DNA of 40,606 nt from a virus. Position 1 is the stretch's first letter, and every line of letters begins with the position of its first letter. Position numbers and translations under genes: made by a program. Below the pieces are notes generated by a model. It ran no database searches. It saw only the letters and a list, made by a program, of their open reading frames with translations, and was not told where the DNA came from. Where the stretch lies: the UHGV virus genome UHGV-0346325, one strand, 5' to 3'. Below are positions 2,059-14,600 of the stretch, one piece after another.

Positions 2059-3349
2059 AAAATTATCTGAATTTCTTCCTAAAGCATTTCATACTACTTG
2101 GAGGGTAGCATTAAACTCAAATATATTACATGTTGTTGAAAAAGGTGGCCGTGGGTCAGGTAAATCATCTGGCATAGCACACATAATCGTTCAATTGATT
2201 ATGAGATATCCTGTAAATGCTGTGGCCATTAGATATGTTGATAATACGATTGAGCTATCTATTTTTGAACAGATTAAGTGGGCTATTGAAGAACAAGGTG
2301 TGTCTAAGTATTTTAAAGTAAATAAAAGTCCAATGAAAATCACTTATAAGCCTAGGGGTAATTATATTGTTTTTCGTGGCGCACAGAACCCAGAAAGGAT
2401 TAAGTCCTTAAAGGATTCAAGATTTCCATTTGCTATAGCTTGGATTGAGGAGTTAGCCGAGTTTAAAACAGAAGATGATGTAAAAACCATTACCAATTCA
2501 CTTTTACGTGGTGAATTAGCAGATGGTCTTTTTTATAAATTCTTTTATTCGTACAATCCTCCTAAGCGACGACAATCATGGGTTAATAAGAAATATGAAT
2601 CTAGCTTCCAACCTGAGAATACTTTCGTTCATCATTCAACATATAAGGATAATCCATTCATAGCTCAAGCATTTATTGAAGAAGTTAATGCCACGAGAGC
2701 TAAGAATCCGAAACGTGCTGAGTGGGAGTATGACGGCAAAGCTATTGGTTCAGGAGTTGTTCCGTTTGATAATTTACGAGTAATAAAAGGTTGTATTACA
2801 GATGAGATGGTAGCTAACTTCGATAATATCAGAAACGGTCTTGACTTCGGTTATGCTACTGATCCATTAGCATTTGTTAGATGGCATTATGATAAAAAGA
2901 AAAATGGAATCTATGCTATTGATGAGATATACGGTGTGAAAATTAGTAATAGGGAATTAGCTAAAAAACTACATGAAAAGGGCTATCAAAATGATGAAAT
3001 TTTTTCTGATTCTGCTGAGCCAAAAAGTAATGCAGAGTTAGTAAATGAGCATGGTATCAATCATATAAAAGGTGTTAAAAAAGGCCCAGATTCGGTTGAA
3101 TATGGTGAACAATGGCTAGATGACTTAGATTTTATTTGTATCGATCCATTGAGGACTCCAAATATAGCTAAGGAATTTGAAAACATTGATTATCAGACTG
3201 ATAGAGATGGTAATCCTAAACCGAGACTAGAAGATAAAGACAATCATACTATTGATGCCACACGTTACGGATTTAATGAAGACATGTGGGCGAAGAAAAA
3301 AACTAAAATTAGTAAAAATCAAAGAAACAAAATAAAAAGAATGTTTTAA
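2051..3349 (+). CDS. terL: terminase large subunit (ATPase/nuclease)
   Basis: Walker A GGRGSGKS. Typical size and position. The start at 2051 (MSKKL) overlaps the terS stop, so the in-frame upstream Met at 1991 is unlikely. Confidence 0.85.
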   Translation: MSKKLSEFLPKAFHTTWRVALNSNILHVVEKGGRGSGKSSGIAHIIVQLIMRYPVNAVAIRYVDNTIELSIFEQIKWAIEEQGVSKYFKVNKSPMKITYKPRGNYIVFRGAQNPERIKSLKDSRFPFAIAWIEELAEFKTEDDVKTITNSLLRGELADGLFYKFFYSYNPPKRRQSWVNKKYESSFQPENTFVHHSTYKDNPFIAQAFIEEVNATRAKNPKRAEWEYDGKAIGSGVVPFDNLRVIKGCITDEMVANFDNIRNGLDFGYATDPLAFVRWHYDKKKNGIYAIDEIYGVKISNRELAKKLHEKGYQNDEIFSDSAEPKSNAELVNEHGINHIKGVKKGPDSVEYGEQWLDDLDFICIDPLRTPNIAKEFENIDYQTDRDGNPKPRLEDKDNHTIDATRYGFNEDMWAKKKTKISKNQRNKIKRMF

Positions 3350-3366
3350 AAAAAGGAGTGTGAAGT

Positions 3367-4905
3367 ATGGAAACTGAAGAAATCCTAAAAGTTAATGAAT
3401 TTGAACATGGATCGGACATCAGCTATTCAAGTGATGTGAATGAAAATTTTGTTAGCTTTGGCGTAGAATCAAATATTCACTATAGATATAGTTCTGCAGA
3501 AGAATTGTTGGGTAATACTGATGTTTTAGCCAAAATGATTGCACACCATAATGAACACCAAGTTCCACGTCTACAGGTTTTGGATGATTATTATAAAGCA
3601 AAGAATACAAACATCATCAAAAATCGTCGCCGTAAGGAAAAAGAAAAAGCAGACCATAGAGCTGCTCATAATTTTGGAAAAGTTCTTGCAACGTTTGATG
3701 TTGGATACAATACAGGCAATCCATTAAAAGTCCAAATTAATAATAAAGCTAGTCAAGAGACCATTGATAATTTCAATCAAGATAATGACATTGACGGATT
3801 GAATGGAGAATTGTGGTTAGATATGGATAAATACGGCCGAGCTTATGAAATCATATATCGAGATGAAGATGACGTTGACTATGTTGATCTATGCAATGTT
3901 TTTGAAACGTTTGTTGTTTATGATACAACGGTCAAGCGTAGACCAATACTTGCTGTTCGTTATCCTAAAACTAAATTTACTATAGATGCAGACAAACAGT
4001 ATATTCAACCGATAATTTACACAAAAGACAAAATCATTACTTACGCTGAAACGACTCTTGCTACGATTAAACTAAGTGATCCAAAAGAGGATTCTCATGA
4101 TTATAAAGAAGTTCAGATAACTGAGTTCTCTCCTAATCGTTTTAGAATGGGATTGTATGAAGATATTTTATCTCAAATCGATTTGTATGATGCTGGACAG
4201 TCTGACACTGCTAATTACATGACGGATTTAAACGATGCGCTGTTAGTGATTAGTGGAGACATCGAAGCAGCGGGTCTATCAACCGAAGATGCTATTAAGC
4301 AAAAAGAAGCGAACATGCTTTTACTTGAATCTGGCACAGATATCAACGGTAACAAGACCTCAGTGAATGCTAGCTACATCTATAAACAATACGATGTAAA
4401 CGGCGTTGAAGCTTACAAAGAACGAGTGAGAAAAGGGATACATGAAATATCTATGATTCCAGATTTAACAGATACAAATTTTTCTGGTGTTCAATCAGGA
4501 GAAGCAATGAAGTATAAAATGTTTGGTTTCAATCAAATGACGGCAGTAAAGCAAAGACTATTTAAAAAAAGTCTTGTGCGGCGCTATCGTCTTTTATTTA
4601 ATCTGAAATCAAGTGTTTCTGAGATTGATAACTCCGATTTAAAAGGATTGCGAATTATCTTTACTCCTAATCTTCCGAAAGCAATTCTAGAAGAATTAAA
4701 AACATTGATTGAATCTGGAGCAGAGTTAAGCCAAGAAACAATTTTAGGTCTAGCTTCGTTTGTTGATGATGTTCAAGCTGAATTAGAACGTGTAAAAAAT
4801 GAAAATAAACCATTAGATATTACTGATGAAGAAGTAGACAAAACGAAAGTAAATCAGGCAAAATTTTTAGCTAAACAATCGGAAAAGGAAGCCGAGGAGG
4901 AATGA
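3367..4905 (+). CDS. portal protein (SPP1 gp6-like)
   Basis: 512 aa, immediately after terL, with the acidic C-terminus typical of portal proteins. Confidence 0.75.
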   Translation: METEEILKVNEFEHGSDISYSSDVNENFVSFGVESNIHYRYSSAEELLGNTDVLAKMIAHHNEHQVPRLQVLDDYYKAKNTNIIKNRRRKEKEKADHRAAHNFGKVLATFDVGYNTGNPLKVQINNKASQETIDNFNQDNDIDGLNGELWLDMDKYGRAYEIIYRDEDDVDYVDLCNVFETFVVYDTTVKRRPILAVRYPKTKFTIDADKQYIQPIIYTKDKIITYAETTLATIKLSDPKEDSHDYKEVQITEFSPNRFRMGLYEDILSQIDLYDAGQSDTANYMTDLNDALLVISGDIEAAGLSTEDAIKQKEANMLLLESGTDINGNKTSVNASYIYKQYDVNGVEAYKERVRKGIHEISMIPDLTDTNFSGVQSGEAMKYKMFGFNQMTAVKQRLFKKSLVRRYRLLFNLKSSVSEIDNSDLKGLRIIFTPNLPKAILEELKTLIESGAELSQETILGLASFVDDVQAELERVKNENKPLDITDEEVDKTKVNQAKFLAKQSEKEAEEE

Positions 4906-4909
4906 TTGA

Positions 4910-5848
4910 ATGTCCTACTTGAAAAATCGTGAAGAATCTTGGATCAAAGAACAGATGAAGCTAGATCGCAATAGAGAAAAAGAAATTGTTCAACAGCTTC
5001 AAAATGCTATTGATGCGATTCAAACCGAAATTGAAGCTAACTGGGATAGATTTTCCAATGGTCAAAAGATTACGATTAGCGAAGCAAGAAAAATGGCTAA
5101 CAAGATGGACGTACAACGATTCGAAAGAAAAGCGAAGGAATATGTAAAAAATAAAGACTTTAGTCCACAGGCCAATAAAGAATTGAAAATCTATAACTTA
5201 GTAATGCGAGTGTCTAGATTAGAGCTATTAAAGTCTCAGATTGGTTTAGAATTAATCACGTTATTTGATGAGCTAGATAAGTGGGGATATTCTAAGTTAA
5301 CTGAAGCCGCAAAAGATGAATATTTAAGACAGGCGGGAATACTAGGCGAAACCGTTAAAGAAAATTATTCGTCTAAGGTTAGAAAAATTGTTAATGCCTC
5401 ATTCAAATCAAGTGACTTCCCTTCGTTTAGTGATAACATTTGGCAAAATTTTGTTGAAATGAAAGCTGATTTAGAAAAAATAATCACTCAGGCAATTATT
5501 CAAGGTAAAAATCCAAGGGCCGTAGCAAAAGAGATGGCTAAATTTTTAAAGCCTAACCAATTAAATATAAGATACAAGCTAAATAGGTTAATGATGACTG
5601 AAATATCTGGTATTCAAACAGATATTCAAAAGCAAAGTTACTTAGATGCAGATATCGAAGAATATGATTACATTGCAGAACCATTTGCCTGTGAAATATG
5701 TAAAAAAGTAGCTAAGGCTAGTCCTTATAAAGTATTAAAGATGCAAAAAGGCATTAATGCTCCATACATGCATCCCCATTGCAAATGCTCTACTGTCCCT
5801 AAAGTTAGTGAAGATTATGAAAAGTCGCTGAAAGAAAGAGGTTTGTAA
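4910..5848 (+). CDS. minor head / head morphogenesis protein (SPP1 gp7 / Mu F-like)
   Basis: Position after the portal gene and size of 312 aa. C-terminal Cys/His cluster (CEIC...HPHCKC). Confidence 0.55.
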   Translation: MSYLKNREESWIKEQMKLDRNREKEIVQQLQNAIDAIQTEIEANWDRFSNGQKITISEARKMANKMDVQRFERKAKEYVKNKDFSPQANKELKIYNLVMRVSRLELLKSQIGLELITLFDELDKWGYSKLTEAAKDEYLRQAGILGETVKENYSSKVRKIVNASFKSSDFPSFSDNIWQNFVEMKADLEKIITQAIIQGKNPRAVAKEMAKFLKPNQLNIRYKLNRLMMTEISGIQTDIQKQSYLDADIEEYDYIAEPFACEICKKVAKASPYKVLKMQKGINAPYMHPHCKCSTVPKVSEDYEKSLKERGL

Positions 5849-6118
5849 ATGGATAATCTATATAAATGCAATCAATGCAATGAATACACTCCGTTAGTTA
5901 GAAAATCTAAAAATATCACGAAGGATATTGAACACCATTATGCTGAATGTGCAAATTGTGGATATAAAGCGACAATTATGTATATGAATACCGAAATCAA
6001 GTTATTAATGTATGAACAAAGAAAAACAAAATTTGGTACAAAAAAGAAAGGTAATTTGACAGAAAAGCTAAACAGATTAATTTCTGAATTAAGAAAAGAA
6101 GTCGAGGGATCAAGTTGA
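5849..6118 (+). CDS. small zinc-ribbon protein, 89 aa
   Basis: CNQC...CANC motif. Translationally coupled to the preceding gene. Confidence 0.45.
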   Translation: MDNLYKCNQCNEYTPLVRKSKNITKDIEHHYAECANCGYKATIMYMNTEIKLLMYEQRKTKFGTKKKGNLTEKLNRLISELRKEVEGSS

Positions 6119-6336
6119 AAAGTTATTCTTTAGTTTATTGGTCAGGTGTTGACGATGAAACTGGTGCGTTTAAGCAAATAGATTGTCTCATTAATGATGA
6201 AACAGTTCAGAAATTGCTTGAAGGTAAACCTAAATTTATCTCAATTATTATTGATGATGGTGAACAAATGTTAATTCAAACGGATAATATCAATCAGATA
6301 AAACAAGTTTATGAAAAATACGGCAGAAAGGCGTGA
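6115..6336 (+). CDS. hypothetical protein, 73 aa
   Basis: ORF overlapping the previous stop (ATGA-type coupling). Confidence 0.4.
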   Translation: MKSYSLVYWSGVDDETGAFKQIDCLINDETVQKLLEGKPKFISIIIDDGEQMLIQTDNINQIKQVYEKYGRKA

Positions 6337-6407
6337 TTCTATGAATGACGATCCTTACGATTACTTAGATGCTGATTATGAAGAATATTTAAGAAAGGAA
6401 GAAGTAA

Positions 6408-6686
6408 ATGAAAGCACGAAAGAAACCAGTAGCGATTGAAACTGTAATTTTTTTAGGTTTTTATGGGAAGGATCGCAATTTCAGTGAAAGACCTAAGTGG
6501 CTGGAGAGAGCAATCTATGTTGATAAAAAAATTGAATTTTTTGATGTTCCTGAAAAATTAACTATCCATACTATTGAAGGACCAATTTATGCAGGTCCTG
6601 GTGATTACATCATAAAAGGCGTTAATGGCGAACTTTATCCGTGCAAGCCGGACATATTTGAAAAAACTTATGAGATTATTGAGTAG
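6408..6686 (+). CDS. hypothetical protein, 92 aa
   Basis: ORF with RBS GGAAGAAG, followed by a terminator. Confidence 0.45.
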   Translation: MKARKKPVAIETVIFLGFYGKDRNFSERPKWLERAIYVDKKIEFFDVPEKLTIHTIEGPIYAGPGDYIIKGVNGELYPCKPDIFEKTYEIIE

Positions 6687-6712
6687 AGTCTAACAAACGT
6701 TAGGCTTTTTAT
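6687..6712 (+). terminator. Rho-independent terminator
   Basis: Stem agtctaac/gttaggct (one G·U pair) with loop aaac, followed by ttttt. Confidence 0.55.
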
Positions 6713-6815
6713 ATTGCCTTCTTACTGCTTACAGGCATTAAAGAGAAAGCTGTTTCGATTGGTAGGCGTAACTTATCAAATATATCGGGTAGCGGCGTAA
6801 CCGTGGAGGATAATC

Positions 6816-7415
6816 ATGAAAACAAAAAAACTATTATTGCCAATGCATTTACAATTCTTTGCTGATAATCCAGATACTGGCACTGGAGATACAGACCAAC
6901 CGGCCGGAGGTCAAGAACAAACGCCACCAGAAGATGATAGTAAAGATAAAGGCAATGGAAAAACGTTTTCTCGTGATGAAGTAGCAAAAATGATTGCTGC
7001 TGAAGTATCAAAAACAAAAGAAGCTTGGGAAAAAGAGCAACAAGAAAAACAAGCAGAAGCAGAAAAACTGGCAAAAATGAATGCTCAGGAAAAAGCTGAA
7101 CATGAAAAGAAACAGCTAGAAGCAAAAATTGCGGAATTGGAACGTAGTCAAGCATTAGTTTCCATGTCAAAGGAAGCTTCTAAAATGCTTTCAGAGGCTA
7201 GTTTGCCGCATGACGATGATTTGCTAGGATTGATTGTTTCAGATGATGCGGAAGCTACAAAAAAAGCTGTCGCTATTGTTACGAACTATGTATCAATGAT
7301 TAAGAAAGAAAATGCTCGCCAAAAAACACCAGGTGAGGGCGGACAATTTTCAACTGATAAAAAAGAAACCGAATCAGTTGCAGCTCTTGCAGCAAGTAAA
7401 CGAATTGTAAAATAG
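6816..7415 (+). CDS. capsid scaffolding protein
   Basis: Glu/Lys-rich coiled-coil protein of 199 aa immediately upstream of the major capsid gene. Confidence 0.6.
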   Translation: MKTKKLLLPMHLQFFADNPDTGTGDTDQPAGGQEQTPPEDDSKDKGNGKTFSRDEVAKMIAAEVSKTKEAWEKEQQEKQAEAEKLAKMNAQEKAEHEKKQLEAKIAELERSQALVSMSKEASKMLSEASLPHDDDLLGLIVSDDAEATKKAVAIVTNYVSMIKKENARQKTPGEGGQFSTDKKETESVAALAASKRIVK

Positions 7416-7427
7416 GAGGAAATATAA

Positions 7428-8360
7428 ATGAAGAAAAAACAATTAATGAAAATGGATATTCAAATGTTTGCTCAAACATGGAATCCAGACAACGTCACAG
7501 TATTAGAGAAAAAGGATGGAACAATTCCAGATAAGTACAACACTTTAATTTTAAAAGATGTGATGGAAAACTCTAAATTAATGCAGTTGGCTAAATATGA
7601 AGAAATGGACGGCAAAGAAAAGAAATTCGAATACTTTGCAGAAGGTCCTGGGGCGTACTGGGTTGGTGAAGGCGAAAAGATTAAAACGTCTAAACCTAAA
7701 TGGTTAAACGTAACGATGACTGCGAAAAAAATTGGTGTTATTATCCCAGTTTCTCGGGAATATTTAACTTATAAGATGTCTGATTTCTTTACTCAAATGC
7801 AACCAAAAATCGCAGAAGCATTTTATAAGAAAATTGATGCGGCTACTATCCTTGATAAAGAAAATCCATTCTCTCAATCTATTGAAAAATCTGTCATTGC
7901 AGCTAGTAATGTAATTGAGGGCGACTTGACATATGACAACATTTTAGCATTAGAGGATTTGCTTGGAGAAGGTGAATATGATCCGAATGCTTTCATTTCT
8001 AATCGTAAGAATCGTACAGTGTTACGTGAAGCAAGTAAAAAAATTGGTGACACGACTCAATTTATTTATGATCGTGTCAGCAATACTATTGATGGACTAC
8101 CTGTAGCAGATCTAAAATCTATGGATAAGGGAAACCTTTATACTGGTGATTTTGATTACTTGCGCTATGGTATCCCATTTAACATTAATTTCAAAATTTC
8201 AGAAGAAGCTCAATTATCTACTTTAACGAATGAAGACGGTACGCCTGTCAACTTGTACGAACAAGAATTGGTTGCTTTACGAGCTACAATGGATATTGGT
8301 TTCATGGTCATCAAAGATGAAGCGTTTGCTAAGATTCAACCAAATGCTGCGGGGGAGTAA
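7428..8360 (+). CDS. major capsid protein
   Basis: 310 aa, strong RBS AGGAGG, located between scaffold and connector genes. Confidence 0.65.
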   Translation: MKKKQLMKMDIQMFAQTWNPDNVTVLEKKDGTIPDKYNTLILKDVMENSKLMQLAKYEEMDGKEKKFEYFAEGPGAYWVGEGEKIKTSKPKWLNVTMTAKKIGVIIPVSREYLTYKMSDFFTQMQPKIAEAFYKKIDAATILDKENPFSQSIEKSVIAASNVIEGDLTYDNILALEDLLGEGEYDPNAFISNRKNRTVLREASKKIGDTTQFIYDRVSNTIDGLPVADLKSMDKGNLYTGDFDYLRYGIPFNINFKISEEAQLSTLTNEDGTPVNLYEQELVALRATMDIGFMVIKDEAFAKIQPNAAGE

Positions 8361-8422
8361 CTAGCCCTGTTGTCGGAAAAGTAACACCGACAACAAATGG
8401 GGCGACAATCGAACTAACTTAG
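8351..8422 (+). other. candidate -1 frame C-terminal extension of the major capsid protein (ends ...GGVTSPVVGKVTPTTNGATIELT*)
   Basis: The -1 frame is open from 8333 to a TAG at 8420-8422. A GGGGG run at 8351-8355 sits at the capsid stop codon. The peptide is homologous to the extension after the major tail gene. Confidence 0.3.
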
Positions 8423-8433
8423 GTGGTGTTTAG

Positions 8434-8766
8434 ATGTCAGAGATAGCAAATGATGTAAAAAAATTATTAAATGGCAGTCTTGATGAAAAATTAGAAATCA
8501 TTGAAAGACGTACAAAAGATCGGCTTCAAAATATATTGAATGTCATTGAGTTACCAAAAAGTTTTGATTCAGTTGTATATGAAGTCACTTTAAAACGATT
8601 TAATCGTATTGGCCAAGAAGGAATGCAATCTTATTCTCAAGAAGGTTTATCTATGGCATTTCCAGACTCTGATTTTTCTGAATATCAAGATGAGATTGAA
8701 GAGTATAAGAACAAGGAATTAGAAGAATTTTATAAGCCTAAACGTGGGAGGTTTACATTTTCATGA
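8434..8766 (+). CDS. head-tail connector protein (gp6/gp15-like)
   Basis: 110-aa ORF in the conserved head-tail joining block. Confidence 0.45.
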   Translation: MSEIANDVKKLLNGSLDEKLEIIERRTKDRLQNILNVIELPKSFDSVVYEVTLKRFNRIGQEGMQSYSQEGLSMAFPDSDFSEYQDEIEEYKNKELEEFYKPKRGRFTFS

Positions 8767-9098
8767 GATATTTAGATGAAATTACCTTTGTAAAAAAATC
8801 TTCAAAATCGCATTATGATCCAAATTCAGGTGAATGGATTGAAGAAGAACCGTTTATAAAAACTGCTGATGTCAATGTAACTGATATTGGGACAGATCGT
8901 TCCATTACTATTTTCGGGAGCATTAAAGAAGGGGCTAAGGTCATTAGGACACAGCCCCTTTTTGTTATTCAAGAATTTGATTACATTGAGTTTGAGGGTA
9001 AAACTTGGGAAGTTATTACAAGTAGAGTTCCTGCATTAAGAAATAGCTTGATTATTCAGGAAGTGATTATTGATGGCAAGAAATCAAGTAAGAATTAA
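8763..9098 (+). CDS. head closure / head-tail adaptor protein
   Basis: 111 aa, translationally coupled within the same block. Confidence 0.45.
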   Translation: MRYLDEITFVKKSSKSHYDPNSGEWIEEEPFIKTADVNVTDIGTDRSITIFGSIKEGAKVIRTQPLFVIQEFDYIEFEGKTWEVITSRVPALRNSLIIQEVIIDGKKSSKN

Positions 9099-9453
9099 TG
9101 GACTAGCTGGAATTTCTAAAAAACTAAAGAGAAATGCTCAGCTTGATGATGTGAAAAAAGTTGTTAGAAATAACACAGCAGAATTAACCGCCAATATGCA
9201 AGCTGAAGCCGGAAAAGTGTTAACTGGACACTGGGAAGGTAAAAAGTTTGTTAAACCTACTGGGGCAACAAAAAGAAGTATCGTTATGAGGCTTTCGAAC
9301 AATGGTTTTTCTGGGCATACAGGACCAGGAACGGAATACGCACCGTATTTAATACACGGAACAAGATTCATGGTGAAGCGTGATTTCTTTTTACCACCGC
9401 TGAAACAACAAAAAGTGAAATTTAGAACGGATTTGGAAAGGTTGATGAAATGA
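9070..9453 (+). CDS. HK97 gp10-like tail-component protein
   Basis: 127 aa. Family-like segment ...[17 protein letters not shown]... and conserved position. Confidence 0.55.
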
Positions 9454-9839
9454 TTAAAACAAGAGATCAATCAATCTTCGATGAAGTGTATAAGAAGTGT
9501 CAATCACTGGGTTATGAAACCTACGATTATAAACCTATGAATGATGTAGGTTATCCATTTGTCGAATTAGAAGATACTCAGACACTGCACCAAGCTAACA
9601 AAACTGATATTAAAGGTTCGGTTACGTTGAATCTATCTGTATGGGGATTGTCAAAAAAACGTAAACAAATATCTGATATGGCTTCAGCAATTTTTGCTGA
9701 GGCTCTATCTATTTCTGAAACGGAAGGTTATTATTGGTCGCTCAATATCCAATCAAGCGGTATTCGGTTAGTAGATGACATTTCGACTAACACACCATTG
9801 AAGCGGGCAATGATATCTTTAGAATTCAAAATACTATAG
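9450..9839 (+). CDS. tail completion protein
   Basis: 129 aa, immediately upstream of the major tail gene. Confidence 0.45.
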
Positions 9840-9854
9840 AGAGAAGGAATATAA

Positions 9855-10385
9855 ATGGCTAATGAAGCAAAAGTAGCGGCTAAAGGTATTGATATTATTT
9901 TACTTTTCCGTTTGTTAAAAAAATCAAAAGAGGAAGCAGCATGGAAATTAGCTTTCCAGACAGAACATGAAAATACAAAAACAAAAGATAGTGACTCTGT
10001 GGCCACTAAAGATGGTCCGATTCGCATCCCAGGATCATTGGAAATTGATTTTTCAGCAACATCTATTTTATCAGTCGGTGATCCGTATGTTGACCAGCTA
10101 GAAGAAGCTTTAGACAATGACGATATTATTGAAATCTGGGAAATCAACAAAGCAGAAAAAGGCACAGGAGATAATGCTGACAAATACAAAGCAACCTATT
10201 ACCAAGGATATGTAACATCATTTGGTAAATCGCCTAATGCTGAAGACACCGTAGAAGTTTCATTAGAATTTGGTATCAATGGTAAAGGCGCAAAAGGATT
10301 TGCAACATTAACTGCTGATCAAGAAGAAGTAGTTCAATACGTCTTCAAAGATACGATTATCGAGACAGCTGATCTGGGAAAGTAG
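9855..10385 (+). CDS. major tail protein
   Basis: 176 aa with RBS GAGAGAAGGAA. Positioned before the chaperone genes and the tape measure gene. Ends with the slippery heptamer G_GGA_AAG immediately before the TAG stop. Confidence 0.6.
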   Translation: MANEAKVAAKGIDIILLFRLLKKSKEEAAWKLAFQTEHENTKTKDSDSVATKDGPIRIPGSLEIDFSATSILSVGDPYVDQLEEALDNDDIIEIWEINKAEKGTGDNADKYKATYYQGYVTSFGKSPNAEDTVEVSLEFGINGKGAKGFATLTADQEEVVQYVFKDTIIETADLGK

Positions 10386-10445
10386 ATAGCCCTGTTGTGA
10401 GTAATGTAACTCCTACAGTCGATGGGGCATCTATTGAATTAAGCT
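10376..10445 (+). other. programmed -1 frameshift site (GGGAAAG) and -1 frame extension of the major tail protein (...GK VDSPVVSNVTPTVDGASIELS*)
   Basis: G GGA AAG is in the correct zero frame for X XXY YYZ. The -1 frame is open from 10373 to a TAA at 10443-10445. The peptide is about 65-70% identical (nt and aa) to the capsid extension. Confidence 0.5.
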
Positions 10446-10465
10446 AAGAAAGGAAAATTAATATA

Positions 10466-10921
10466 ATGGATACTTTTAAAATTTATAAAGGCCAAACCGA
10501 AGTTGTTTCCGGCACATCACCTTTAACTATAACAGGAATGGAACCTGACACCTCAGTGTCGGCTGGTGAGTACCAAGTAACTCGTGTTGTTAATGGGACA
10601 GAATCAGAGCGAGTAGATATTCCAGCTTTTAAAACATTGTCTATTGCTGTAACTGGTTTAGAGTTTTCTCCTAAAACGTCCACAGCCGATGCGGGTACTG
10701 CAGGTAGCCGACAAATCACAGCAACTGTTTTGCCTGAAAATGCAACCAACAAAAAAGTAAACTATTCTATTACGCCTACAACAGAAGGTCTTGCTGTCTC
10801 TGAAACAGGAAATATTACTTGGACAGAAGCGGTACCGGCTGGTGTTTATACTACAACAGGAACAACAGAGGATGGTAAAAAAACAGCTCAACACACCTTA
10901 ACATTGAATAATCAAGCTTAA
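10466..10921 (+). CDS. Ig-like (BIG2-type) domain protein, 151 aa, in the same frame as the tail extension after a single TAA
   Basis: Sequence ...SRQITATVLPENATNKKVNYSITP...AVS.TGNITW is typical of a bacterial Ig-like group 2 domain. The ORF frame (mod 3 = 2) is identical to the -1 extension frame. Confidence 0.55.
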   Translation: MDTFKIYKGQTEVVSGTSPLTITGMEPDTSVSAGEYQVTRVVNGTESERVDIPAFKTLSIAVTGLEFSPKTSTADAGTAGSRQITATVLPENATNKKVNYSITPTTEGLAVSETGNITWTEAVPAGVYTTTGTTEDGKKTAQHTLTLNNQA

Positions 10922-10934
10922 AATATAAATTTAG

Positions 10935-10962
10935 AGGGCAGCTTAGAGGCTGTCCTTTTCTT
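10935..10962 (+). terminator. stem-loop / probable terminator
   Basis: Stem agggcagc/gctgtcct with loop ttagag, followed by tttctt. Confidence 0.45.
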
Positions 10963-10976
10963 ATGGAGGAAAAGGC

Positions 10977-11327
10977 ATGCAAATCGAAATTAAAGGAAAA
11001 AAATATAACTGTATTTTTGGAGTCAAGTTTATTCGTGAATTGGATAAGCAGCATGGGGTAGTTCGCAATGATGTAAATCTTGGGATGGGACTAACAACAT
11101 TATTACCGCAGCTAGTAAGTGGAAATATCGTTGTTTTATCTGATGTACTCTACACAGCTACCATTACGGAAAAAAGTAGACCTTCTAAGGATGAAGTAGA
11201 TGAGTTCGTTGAAACTGTGGATGATATTGAGGCATTATTTGATGAAACGTTGAAATACTTAGAAGAAAGCAATGCGGGAAAGTTAACGGTCAGAAATTTC
11301 AAGAAAGCTCTGATGGAGAACAAGTAA
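10977..11327 (+). CDS. tail assembly chaperone (gpG-like)
   Basis: 116-aa ORF between the major tail and tape measure genes. Contains the slippery heptamer G_GGA_AAG at 11276-11282. Confidence 0.6.
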   Translation: MQIEIKGKKYNCIFGVKFIRELDKQHGVVRNDVNLGMGLTTLLPQLVSGNIVVLSDVLYTATITEKSRPSKDEVDEFVETVDDIEALFDETLKYLEESNAGKLTVRNFKKALMENK

Positions 11328-11677
11328 GAGAGGAACTAACCTCAGCTGAAGCTTATGAAAATATTCTTATTAATTGTTTTCGTTACCTAGAAATTACTGA
11401 TTTATCAGAAATTGAACGAATGACTTTGTATGAATATGAAGTTAGGCTATTGGCGTTTCAGTTAAAAAGACTTGACCATGAAAGAGACCTCTATCTTCAA
11501 TCTTGGCTAAATAACCAAATTAAGGCGACTAAAGGTAAAAAATCCGAACCTTATTATAAGGAATTCAATAAGTTTTTCAATTATGAAGAACGAGAGAAGC
11601 TTATTTTGGGTAAGTCATTAATTGATGAAAAGGTTGATATAGGAGCAATTGATTTATTAAGAAAAGCAAATAAGTAG
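10977..11677 (+). CDS. tail assembly chaperone -1 frameshift fusion product (gpGT-like)
   Basis: The downstream ORF (track 11420-11677) is in the -1 frame, which is open back to 11246. The heptamer GGGAAAG at 11276-11282 is in register with the gpG frame. Confidence 0.55.
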
Positions 11678-11692
11678 GAAAGGAGGAAAATA

Positions 11693-14600
11693 ATGGAATC
11701 ATATTCAGTCGAAGCAATACTTACTGCTACTGATAGAACGTTTAGTAGCACGATGAGTAGCGCTGAACGTTCTATGGCTGGTGTAAACAAGCAATCTGGT
11801 GAACTAGGGGATGGATTGGATAAAAGCACCACTAAAGGTAATCAATTAGGCAAGTCAATTCTTAGTATTGGAGCAGGTGTGGGTGCAGTAAAATTAGTAT
11901 CTACGGCCGTAAATATGGTTAAGGACTCTGTTGAAGGAGCGATTAATCGTTTTGATACGTTGAATAAGTATCCAGTAGTTATGAAGGCTCTAGGTTACTC
12001 AACAGAAGATGTTGATCGGTCCATGAATAAACTATCTGATGGGATTGATGGATTGCCAACATCCCTCGATGAAATTGTAGCTAGTACGCAACAACTATCA
12101 ATTTCAACTGGTAGCTTGAGTAAAGGAACTGACACAGCTATTGCATTAAATGATGCCTTTCTTGCTTCTGGAGCTTCAACTGCTGATGCGACTCGTGGTA
12201 TGCAACAATATATTCAAATGCTCGGTAAGGGTGAAGTTGATATGCAGTCTTGGCGAACATTACAAGAAACAATGCCAATTGCGATGGATAAAGTTGCTAA
12301 GTCTTTCAAAGAACAAGGTGTAAACTCAGTTAACCAATTATATGATGCCTTAAAAGAAGGAGATATTACATTTAATGAGTTCAATAATCGTTTGATTGAG
12401 TTGGATAAAGGTGTAGGCGGTTTTGCGGATTTAGCCAAGAAAAACTCAAAAGGTATCAAAACCTCATGGGCAAATATTAAAACAGCTACTGTTAAAGGTG
12501 TAACTACAGTTATTAAATCGTTTGATGAATTATCCAAAGCAGTGACAGGAAAAAATATTGCCGAAAATTTGGACTCTTTAAAAAATGTAGTGAATATAAC
12601 TTTTAAGGCAATTGATGCAGCGATTCAATCAACTATCCCATTGATGAAACTATTCGGAAAAGCTATTACTTCGATAGGTACAGCTTTAACACCATTACTA
12701 CCAACAATTGCCAGTTTTGCTGCCACCTTTACAGCGTTGAAAGTAATTCAGCAAGTGACAGGCTATATAAAACAATCTGAATTGGCAATCAAAGCTTATA
12801 CAATCGCAATAAGTTTGTACAATGGAATATCAAAACTGGCTACGTTGTCTACCACAGCACTCGGAAGAGCATGGATGTTAAACTTAGCAGCCGATAAAGC
12901 CAATTCTGCAGCAATAGCAATAAAAACTGGTCTTTTAGTGGCACAAAATACAATCGTTGGTGTTTTGACGGGAACAATTAGTTTAGCTACAGTAGCTACA
13001 ACTGTTTTTAGTACCGCTATGAAATTGTTGATGGGCCCTATTGGTTGGGTAACAACTGCAATAGGAGGACTAGTAGCTGTAGGGGTAAACTTGTGGAAAT
13101 GGTTAAATAAGGAAACTGAATCAACTAAGGCAGTTAAAAAAGAACAAGAAAACCTTATGAAAACCACAGATGACTTGATTAAAAAGAATCAAGAACATGC
13201 ACAATCCCGAAAAGATGAAGCTATTGAATTGGATAATACTAAAGAAAAATTCCAATCTATGATTTCTGAAATGGAAATGCTCTCTGCTAAAGAAAAATTA
13301 AGCAACAGCGAGAAAAAACGTATGGTGGAAATTGTTGAGGAATTGAACGGTAAAATGACAGGTTTAAACTTAGTTTATGACGATCAAAAAAATATTTTAT
13401 CTGAAATGCCTGGAACAATTCGACAACAAGTTGATGCCTATAATGCTTTAGATGAAGCTTCTCAAGCTCAAGAAAACATTAATCAAATGTTAAAAGAACG
13501 AAATGATAATGAAGCGAAGCTGATGGAAATTAATGCCGCTAGAGAAAAATGGAATCAGACATTAAAAGAATCTGGCGGGAATACAAAAGAAGCTCGTGAA
13601 AATATTGAAGAGTTGGGCGAGCAAGAGCAAGTGTTAAAGGGCGTTCAACAGGAATTAACGAATGAAATTATAAATACAGCTAATGCCCATGAACAATCAA
13701 TGCAGCGTGCAAGCCAAGCTGTGGAAAATGGTGTGTTAAATCAAACAGTTTCATACAATGCTTTAAGTGGTAAGACGAAAGAAACAATGGATGCAATGCG
13801 TTCAGAATATTCATCACTTGAAGAAAAAGTAGGGAGTGCCTTTGATGTTATCCAGCAAAAACAAGCTATTTCAGTTGATCAAATGGCTGAAAATTTACAA
13901 AAAAATCAAGATGCTGTTAACCAATGGAGCACTAACATTGCTGCGTTAGCACAGCGAGGGGTAGATGAAGGGCTTTTAGAGCAACTAAGGAAAATGGGAC
14001 CTGAAGGTGCTGCTCAAGCGGCAGAATTAGTTAATTCTTCAGACGAACAATTACAACGTTTGAATGATGTTTATCGTAATACAGGCGAAACTTCCATGAA
14101 CGCAATGAAAGAAGGCTACCAGTTAGGTAAAAATGGTGTTAATGAGGAAATAGCAAGCTTAATCCCAACTCAAAAAGAAACTTTGATGACTCAGATTAAG
14201 AGCACCGATTTTAATAGTGTGGGTTTAAGTGTGACCGAAAACTTTAAAGCAGGTATTGAGAATGGGCGTACAGCAGTCGAAGAAATGACCAAAGGAATTG
14301 TTCCTAAAGTCGGGGAAGACATGAAAGGCGAAGTTCAAAAAGCTGATTTCAGAGGTATTGGTAAGTCCATTCCTCAAGGATTAGAAAAAGGTGTTGACGA
14401 CGGCAAAGGAGTTCCTGTAAAAACATCTAATCAAATGATTGATGATATTGTTTCTGGTGCCAGAAAAGGTTTAGATTCTCACTCTCCTTCTCGTGTATTT
14501 CACTCAATTGGCGAAGATGTTGATTCTGGATTATCAAACGGTATCGAACAAAACGCAATGAATCCAGTAAGAGCTGTGGAGGCGATTGTTGATAAAATAA

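Follow-up and report, generated by a model that had tools for sequence, protein, structure and literature searches.

Phage structural proteins that gain an Ig-like or FN3 domain through programmed ribosomal frameshifting were reportedly recognized as a class by Fraser and colleagues in 2006, and gp17.1* of phage SPP1 is said to belong to it. In Listeria phage PSA, a +1 frameshift described by Zimmer in 2003 is likewise said to generate the longer proteins Cps-L and Tsh-L, and the head-protein extension of Lactobacillus phage A2 is reported to be about 85 residues long. As cited in PMC5221750, the A2 pairs gp5A/5B and gp10A/10B arise from a −1 shift at C_CCA_AAA in the major head and tail genes (Garcia 2004; Rodriguez 2005). 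Here we describe a related arrangement in the virus genome UHGV-0346325, of which a stretch of 40,606 nucleotides (nt), referred to as the window, was analyzed as one strand. Homologous 21-residue peptides, the tags, follow both the major capsid protein (MCP) gene and the major tail (tube) protein (MTP) gene in the −1 frame (Table 1). Comparison with related phages indicates that the tag corresponds to the part of an FN3 domain that is missing from the N-terminal domain (N-domain) of a separately encoded, 151-residue Ig-like protein. We propose, with a probability of roughly 0.6, that the frameshift tags recruit this protein to head and tail subunits by fold complementation.

The likeness to the described systems lies in the recoding, and the difference in its product. 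As in A2, a −1 shift at the 3′ end of each gene, capsid and tail, would yield a minor longer form, and the identical C_CCA_AAA heptamer is used by a sister Enterococcus clade (loci L056-L079). The A2 extension, however, is a long C-terminal segment, whereas the one described here comprises 21 residues and two predicted strands, with the remainder of the domain on another polypeptide. Cps-L and Tsh-L of PSA, annotated in NC_003291, arise by a +1 shift at CCC before the stop, the same class of site as in Carnobacterium phage cd4 and in L011, L093, L094 and L157-L167, and the Tsh-L extension is short too (24 residues). The PSA extensions are nevertheless not homologous to the tag, one being SAP-like by its sequence and the other an acidic tail, and no N-domain partner was found in the annotated 10-kb region 3000-13000 of that phage. 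The initial annotation of the window, made from its letters alone, had compared the locus with the frameshift-appended Ig-like decoration of A2 and PSA; the comparison stands for the recoding but fails for the product, as only two FN3 strands are appended and no Ig domain, and the PSA peptides are unrelated. With the Ig-like class, the locus shares recoding at the 3′ terminus of major capsid and tail genes and, on the proposed model, Ig-like display controlled by it; one relative, L184, represents the unsplit state of the same domain family, and others (L017-L020, L096-L100) attach a He_PIG domain directly after the same slip site. Unlike in that class, the domain displayed in the window lies outside the frameshift product, is encoded once and would be recruited to two structural proteins.

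The capsid gene of the window ends GCG GGG GAG TAA, with the stop at 8358-8360, and the tail gene ends CTG GGA AAG TAG. The tail site, which had been singled out as a canonical slippery heptamer one codon before the stop, indeed obeys the X_XXY_YYZ rule in register, and the capsid site, G_GGG_GAG, deviates from it at one position and is near-canonical. Read in the −1 frame, the extensions behind the two genes are identical at 14 of 21 residues, both open with TAGCCCTGTTGT, as had been noted together with their homology, and both conform to the pattern V-x-S-P-V-V-x-x-V-T-P-T-x-x-G-A-x-I-E-L-S/T (21 residues). A profile hidden Markov model (HMM) of the tag has exactly two matches among the 16,615 stop-to-stop segments of the window (E-values in Table 1), and GGGGGAGTAA occurs once against 0.02 expected; the heptamer GGGAAAG by itself is not significantly enriched in the window (5 copies against 3.95 expected). 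The stop of the capsid tag occupies the position homologous to that of the tail tag, and no domain lies 3′ of it. Behind the tail tag, the ATG of the 151-residue open reading frame (ORF) at 10466 lies in the frame of the tag, 18 nt after its TAA. This arrangement had been described correctly apart from the position of the TAA, which is 10445-10447 and not 10443-10445, and the earlier description had overlooked that the start of this ORF is the rest of an FN3 domain.

The assignment to FN3 comes from the relatives of the Ig-like protein. The first 57 homologues all begin at the same place (M..FKIYKG), and the N-terminal domain of a 51%-identical homologue matches only positions 29-81 of the 84 in the Pfam fn3 model. 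In three lineages, joining the recoded tag to the N-terminus encoded downstream of it raises the match and extends it to full length: from 20 bits (positions 52-83) to 36.1 bits (2-83) in cd4, from 34.2 bits (32-83) to 49.0 bits (2-83) in L094, and from 27.5 to 31.1 bits (2-82) in L093, against a gathering score of 25 for fn3 (PF00041). The tags of these three end in the FN3 hallmark ...LSW or ...LTW. In such relatives the tag covers fn3 positions ~2-28 and the N-domain begins at ~29-32; the 21-residue extension does not, accordingly, hold a complete Ig-like or FN3 domain, and instead one chain carries a beta-sandwich short of strands, which sit at the end of a different chain. Searched exhaustively, the window N-domain gave 98 representative relatives, about 60 of which start with the N-domain at residues 2-6; some consist of the domain alone (56-82 residues), and others carry varied cargo behind it.

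Single-chain, unsplit versions of the domain also exist (P0250, P0248, P0208, P0182, P0223 and P0225). The window tag followed by the N-domain aligns with them end to end at 27-43% identity (36-43% for the closest five), interrupted by a single gap of a few residues that falls in the B-C loop, where the split lies. A likely tail protein of L184 has the unsplit domain as its −1 extension, reached at T_TTA_AAA, and this domain has the same C-run and G-run nucleotides as the tags; a stop codon, a ribosome-binding site and a start codon within one loop are thus all that the change from the unsplit to the split form requires. Unsplit MTP-FN3-Ig fusions were not found among close relatives, the unsplit forms coming only from the representative search and from L184. 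On this comparison, tag and N-domain are very likely the two halves of one FN3 domain.

The N-domain module turns up in other settings as well. Residues 228-283 of PDB 5e7t chain B, the C-terminus of the Tuc2009 'minor structural protein 5', match the N-domain part of the profile (E = 7e-4), and this solved structure may hold a relative of the module. In P0130 (233 residues), for which a single short contig is the only source, a shortened N-domain-like segment (...ISVTGVAEGASPLAITGLEP...) continues a tail-tube protein in the same frame, an odd architecture. Within the He_PIG domain of the Ig-like protein itself, at residues ~99-115 (window ~10760-10810), the stretch Y.I.PTTEGLAVS resembles the tag (NVTPTVDGASIELS), and MAFFT aligned the tags there; this likeness may be chance strand similarity or distant kinship.

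Tags of this kind are widespread. The comparison set comprised 18 prophage loci from reference genomes, ~160 distinct viral contigs gathered over two scans and several annotated phages, ~180 loci in all. The tag HMM matched at least once in 85 of the 101 sequences searched and twice in 57, and a refined model yielded 167 coding-strand matches in related loci against 2 on the opposite strand. Almost all tags lie in the −1 frame immediately 3′ of a capsid or tail gene, and these upstream genes belong to unrelated families, namely PF05065, PF03864, PF25209 and phrog_840 for capsid proteins and PF06199, PF04630 and phrog_820 for tail-tube proteins. The −1 junctions include GGGGGAG before a stop (TAA or TAG), G_GGA_AAG, G_GGA_AAC, A_AAA_AAA, C_CCA_AAA and TCA_AAA before a stop. 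GGGGGAG with TAA or TAG is the commonest junction among related loci, after both MCPs and MTPs, and the equivalents of the tail site are G_GGA_AAG, G_GGA_AAC, GGGGGAG or an A-run longer by 1 nt that fuses the tag in frame. Sites of the +1 type, CCC_TAA or CCC_TAG, occur in cd4, L011, L093, L094, L157, L162, L164, L165 and L167. The tag is fused in frame in the phiEf11 MTP, in the P0058 cluster (197 residues, 159 members) and in the ORF95-like proteins of Kayviruses, and shifted and in-frame tail-tag states are both common in databases.

The frame of the tag bears a coding signature: entropy at the three codon positions is 0.84, 0.66 and 1.36, the third being the most variable, and 36% of differing codon pairs are synonymous in this frame, compared with 11% and 4% in the other two. 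The tag is therefore, with high probability, translated. That a peptide shared in an alternative frame implies translation of this frame had been argued from the window alone, and the argument is borne out by the coding signature, by the in-frame fusions and by recurrence across unrelated families; the proposed check in related phages likewise came out in favor of a peptide conserved as protein. Frameshifting at the 3′ ends of capsid and tail genes to give homologous extensions, in turn, has strong comparative support from varied slip sites, and the frameshift reading as a whole is well supported by comparison.

Individual loci add detail to this distribution. In phiEf11 ORF15 (L001 4475-5068), L045 and P0058, one extra A (GAAAAAGTAG versus GGGAAAGTAG) brings the tail tag in frame, and every tube subunit would therefore carry it. 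TTA CCC AGC TAA closes the capsid gene as well as the tail gene of the S. aureus Triavirus phi7401PVL (L101 3724-3796, 5889-5961), and homologous tags ending ...KAKSAVISAE and ...NSKSATVSAE before the stop come next in the +1 frame; these are candidate unannotated +1 frameshifts of PVL-type phages. The tags of the second Enterococcus clade (L056-L079; e.g., L057 3865-3946 and L056 1126-1207) end in ...EMEEGA or ...DMKEGI because the Shine-Dalgarno sequence of the next ORF (GAAGGAG) sits inside the tag, with the ATG 1-2 nt past the tag stop, and behind the capsid copy these codons make up a hairpin that resembles a terminator (AAGAAGGAG..CTCCTTCTTTTTT). In Bacillus sp. JCM 19034 (L012 / L095 5888-5974) the tag is seemingly +1 relative to the longest upstream ORF, and the local CAG GGA AAC TAA is a −1 site as in L089; an upstream frame error in the assembly is likely.

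A close precedent is phiEf11 ORF10 (Stevens et al., 2016, PMC5221750), where the same tag follows a different capsid gene. Sodium dodecyl sulfate-polyacrylamide gel electrophoresis of phiEf11 virions revealed two MCP bands ~3 kDa apart, both from ORF10, and the authors proposed, as speculation, a −1 shift at A_AAA_AAA that adds 21 residues; ORF15 migrated at 28-30 kDa, compared with 21.5 kDa predicted (PMC5221750). The recurrence of the tag in frame at the end of ORF15 and its kinship with the opening domain of ORF16 were not noted in that paper.

The distribution of the parts across relatives is modular, as would suit a tag and a catcher. Where the N-domain is absent, a He_PIG Ig domain stands directly after the same 'GGV' slip site (L017, L018, L020, L096, L098-L100), or, in L097, this domain is fused in frame to the capsid protein. 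An adaptor role for the split FN3 domain is thus suggested, by which a single Ig gene could serve head and tail. Tag class, moreover, tracks N-domain class, ...LSW occurring with Y.VYRNG, ...SAE with L.LYKG and ...IELS with FKIYKG, and this co-variation is independent of capsid family and of slip type. A free, exposed tag also fits the AlphaFold2 model of the in-frame MTP with its tag, in which the latter is a disordered tail (predicted local distance difference test (pLDDT) 27-45).

A variation on the theme is found in Staphylococcus phage loci of the Kayvirus and Silviavirus groups (L102, L106, L107), in which an ORF95-like protein ends in ...APKNVQVTPKEDGADVSAE and its stop. The Kayvirus order is a 210-residue ORF95-like protein ending in the tag, then TmpH, then TmpI (Staph1N = L102 5337-6746). 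TmpH consists of an N-domain, a Big_2 domain and a C-terminal tag of its own (...APADVTVEPGENSADITV, stop), and TmpI of Kayviruses (L102; L107 has the same gene layout) is an N-domain only, 75 residues long; Silviavirus has the same split between tag-ending protein and TmpH, at 48% identity. TmpH and TmpI both carry annotations as virion components; immunogold labeling placed TmpH on the tail, and it is surface-exposed and immunogenic (PMC8236893); the accessible part of the phage 812 structure literature yielded no description of TmpH. A five-strand-only protein of the TmpI type makes most sense as a tag partner or cap. An acceptor at the N-terminus together with a donor at the C-terminus is found in TmpH, P0010 and P0225. 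In the Ig-like protein P0010 (L104, a Logan contig, 284-1060), the C-terminal tag duplicates the upstream capsid tag including the ribosome-binding site that follows it, which suggests recombination between tag copies and a protein that may be able to chain.

Downstream of both shift sites the RNA is predicted to fold, into hairpins that begin about 6 nt past each site. The 92-nt capsid segment with the hairpin has a folding energy of −26.2 kcal/mol (z = −2.14), a fold that includes a second downstream hairpin, and the tail hairpin reaches −20.2 kcal/mol (z = −1.58), weak on its own. A C-run and a G-run make up the outer arms. The C-run spans the conserved Pro codon and the one preceding it, the G-run the conserved Asp-Gly-Ala codons, and relatives retain both at synonymous sites. 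Of 32 tags, 29 use GGG for the conserved Gly, although GGG accounts for 13% of Gly codons in these loci. Nearly all of the 32 aligned tags, moreover, have a C-ending codon just ahead of the conserved Pro, C-ending codons being a minority in these loci. One tag contains the compensatory pair GCUCC/GGAGC. When 37 native junctions were folded singly and compared with synonymous recodings, the mean z-score was −1.04, and 9 of the 37 fell below −1.64. A search of the tag region against Rfam returned nothing relevant. The hairpin is a likely but unproven stimulator of frameshifting.

We propose the following sequence of events. At G_GGG_GAG in the capsid gene and G_GGA_AAG in the tail-tube gene, a minority of ribosomes would move back by one base, probably aided by the GC-rich hairpin ~6 nt downstream, and would append a 21-residue tail equivalent to FN3 strands A and B. 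Strands C-G would be supplied by the N-terminal 60 residues of the separately translated 151-residue protein, with the Ig-like domain behind them. The incomplete domain would dock on the tag, the two pieces folding into one FN3 domain, and the product of one gene would be anchored non-covalently on both head and tail, with the number of anchoring sites set by frameshift efficiency. Such docking of tag and N-domain in trans appears reasonably probable. A slightly bolder and somewhat less secure generalization, still favored over its negation, is that phages of Firmicutes possess a natural, non-covalent tag-and-catcher pair derived from a split FN3 domain, in which a 20-residue, two-strand donor meets a five-strand acceptor mounted on varied cargo and frameshifting sets the stoichiometry. 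The donor would sit on capsid, tail-tube or other virion proteins, and the acceptor would open Ig-like, putative carbohydrate-binding and fibre proteins; proteins that combine acceptor and donor (TmpH, P0010, P0225) would polymerise head to tail, and the acceptor-only TmpI would cap the chain.

Several points weigh against this proposal. Slippage and extended proteins in the window phage are something we infer from sequence comparison. The capsid heptamer G_GGG_GAG is non-canonical, and tRNA-Glu would have to re-pair on GGA through a G-U pair in the middle; mass spectrometry of phiEf11 did not detect the extension peptide (PMC5221750). The window's own tag joined to its N-domain scores below any Pfam fn3 threshold, and its FN3 identity derives from homology, namely 51-52% identity to the P0052/L093 type and the collinear unsplit domains. 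The RNAalifold consensus of the 37 junctions is a CCC/GGG stem of 3 bp only, as the arms occupy different codon registers, and the single-sequence z-scores are modest. The co-variation of tag and N-domain classes could reflect shared ancestry. In an AlphaFold2 model of P0010 the tag was left undocked (coil, pLDDT 53-58), and the N-domain was modelled confidently alone (pLDDT 91-96). The two Ig domains and 9-residue linker between the ends of this protein, together with a tag devoid of alignment depth, may account for the undocked state, but the model lends docking no support. A Foldseek search of the P0010 model against the PDB returned generic Ig tandems only.

The confident modelling of the N-domain without a tag, the undocked tag of P0010, the reliance of the binding step on sequence and the short, unrelated tail that the PSA tail protein gains by frameshifting would all suit tags that are made by frameshifting and act alone, as a flexible spacer or an assembly signal, or that persist as a tolerated remnant, with the truncated FN3 domain stable and the Ig-like protein attached otherwise. 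A remnant, however, would not retain both a coding signature and a stop position across distant phages. Proteins of 56-82 residues that consist of the N-domain only, such as TmpI, are without another obvious role, tags and N-domains co-occur, with Ig fused directly where the N-domain is missing, and tag class follows N-domain class and not capsid family or slip-site type; we consider an independent function of the tag unlikely, if still the weightiest of the alternatives. Another idea is that no frameshift takes place and that the conserved stretch acts at the RNA level, for instance as an attenuator or as a hairpin that confers stability, with peptide likeness as a by-product. It would account for the synonymous retention of the C-run and G-run and for the predicted hairpins, but the third-position variation and synonymous excess are seen in the tag frame specifically, many genomes have the peptide as an in-frame fusion, the peptide completes the FN3 profile, the consensus structure is minimal and Rfam is silent, all of which leaves this idea very improbable.

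The initial annotation had left three readings of the tail extension open: stop-codon read-through, recent decay and a functional short tag. Of these, only the last survives. A −1 shift followed by read-through of the TAA would produce a tail-tube/FN3/Ig fusion, and in this clade tag, TAA, 15-18-nt spacer and ORF do share one frame. Across lineages, however, the spacing between tag stop and ATG is 1, 2, 9, 10, 11, 13, 14, 15, 16, 17 or 18 nt, mostly out of frame, and the shared frame is therefore incidental. The capsid tag, moreover, ends at the homologous stop with no domain behind it, the relatives examined have a Shine-Dalgarno sequence (AAGGAGG or GGAGG) and a start codon of their own for the ORF, and TAA is the most efficient stop codon in bacteria; read-through is thus even harder to credit than an RNA element. 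As for decay, the split arrangement is conserved in phages of Enterococcus, Oceanobacillus, Virgibacillus, Cytobacillus, Siminovitchia, Vagococcus, Carnobacterium and Staphylococcus, so that the split is old and maintained. A sequencing error or recent pseudogenisation of a once continuous frameshift extension might be suspected from the one-base A-run difference that puts the phiEf11 tag in frame, yet the same arrangement recurs in dozens of independent assemblies from distant genera, with shifted and in-frame forms both abundant, and this explanation is the least probable of all. Ribosomal bypassing (hopping) was rejected on reading the sequence, which offers no matching take-off and landing codons.

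The most likely function of the tag is that of a frameshift-dosed docking handle for a split-FN3 decoration protein, and it is widespread. Parallels in the protein world are chaperone-usher pili, SpyTag/SpyCatcher and split GFP, in which an incomplete beta-sandwich or domain is completed by another polypeptide, as we propose here from sequence. Variants with an N-terminal acceptor and a C-terminal donor could chain like pilins. In the pili a single C-terminal strand is donated, whereas here it would be two N-terminal strands (A and B), with no evident chaperone, and nothing hinted at a covalent tag-catcher bond. No description of a split FN3 domain, or of strand or fold complementation, in phage decoration was found in the literature covered, most subscription journals lying outside that coverage.

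Longer capsid and tail forms made by frameshifting are known; here the added piece would be a docking handle and not a domain. If correct, this would be a new principle of virion decoration, by which one decoration gene could serve head and tail with its copy number set at the ribosome, and by which one base more or less in an A-run toggles tagging from partial to full or back. It would explain the small ORFs named 'major tail protein' or 'Ig-like' beside genuine capsid and tail genes, virion proteins of 60-80 residues such as TmpI, and the 60-140-nt gaps after capsid and tail genes in phages of Enterococcus, Staphylococcus, Carnobacterium and Bacillaceae. A natural 21-residue tag with a 60-residue partner would also offer a genetically encoded display handle for loading cargo onto phages after assembly, one that would extend to Kayviruses already in therapeutic use.

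As to its identity, the window represents a temperate Enterococcus faecalis siphophage. It shares 97.5% DNA identity with vB_EfaS_IME197 and 97.4% with EFC-1 over 7400-11700, which includes the major capsid region; identity to phiEf11 is 93% from 8381 onward, the phiEf11 capsid gene belonging to a different family. The features of the locus are collected in Table 1.

Table 1. Features of the capsid-to-tail region of the window (positions in the 40,606-nt stretch)
Feature	Positions	Strand	Basis or remark
MCP gene, zero frame, 310 residues	7428-8360	+	PF05065 Phage_capsid, 1.9e-31
Capsid shift site G_GGG_GAG, directly 5′ of stop TAA	8351-8357	+	Read from sequence; slip inferred
Capsid tag ORF, −1 frame, GGVTSPVVGKVTPTTNGATIELT, net +21 residues, stop TAG 8420-8422	8351-8422	+	Translation; tag HMM E = 1.5e-12
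Capsid hairpin, starting 6 nt after shift site	8364-8403	+	Outer arms GCCCU/GGGGC, inner stem GUUGUCGG/CCGACAAC
Head-tail joining genes, four	between capsid and tail-tube genes
MTP gene, zero frame, 176 residues	9855-10385	+	PF06199 Phage_tail_2, 7e-18
Tail shift site G_GGA_AAG, in register, one codon 5′ of stop TAG 10383-10385	10376-10382	+	Read from sequence
Tail tag ORF, −1 frame, GKVDSPVVSNVTPTVDGASIELS, stop TAA	10376-10447	+	Translation; tag HMM E = 9.7e-14
Tail hairpin	10381-10435	+	GC-rich core 10389-10428, GCCCUGUUG paired with CGAUGGGGC
Tag peptides VDSPVVSNVTPTVDGASIELS, VTSPVVGKVTPTTNGATIELT
Predicted C-terminal tag peptides, tryptic with non-K/R C-terminus, VTPTTNGATIELT, VDSPVVSNVTPTVDGASIELS
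Spacer, 18 nt, Shine-Dalgarno-like GAAAGGA, for independent start at ATG 10466	10448-10465	+	Read from sequence
Ig-like ORF, 151 residues	10466-10921	+	He_PIG and Big_2 matches
N-domain, FN3 fold without strands A and B (putative catcher)	10466-10645	+	fn3 match of homologue, collinear unsplit domains
Ig-like cargo domain and stop	10646-10921	+	PF05345 (He_PIG) residues 68-148, 4.2e-6; PF02368 (Big_2) residues 61-143, 2e-3
Tail assembly chaperone G, with −1 extension GT	10977-11327 (G); 11276-11677 (GT)	+	PF12363, 5e-32; context, outside the tag system
Tape-measure ORF start	11693

The Ig-like ORF (gp14 in IME197, ORF16 in phiEf11) is named 'major tail protein' in public records, and PHROG 341 has the same name. 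As no tube-protein domain is present, this is probably a misnomer, carried over in all likelihood from frameshift-fused relatives.

Further downstream, the chaperone gene contains G_GGA_AAG in register at 11276-11282, 900 nt 3′ of the tail heptamer and in the same operon, just as the initial annotation had pointed out. In the −1 frame, 133 codons run without a stop to 11677, just 5′ of the tape-measure ORF, in the classic G/GT arrangement of the lambda type. Unlike at the tag sites, the shift here makes a chaperone fusion, and it shows only that host ribosomes meet this heptamer at a conserved shift site. Between the Ig-like ORF and the chaperone gene, a terminator-like hairpin spotted by eye at 10936-10962 (GGGCAGC, loop TTAGAG, GCTGTCC, then TTTTCTT) is absent from the consensus scan listing; a terminator at this point of the tail operon could tune expression of the downstream genes.

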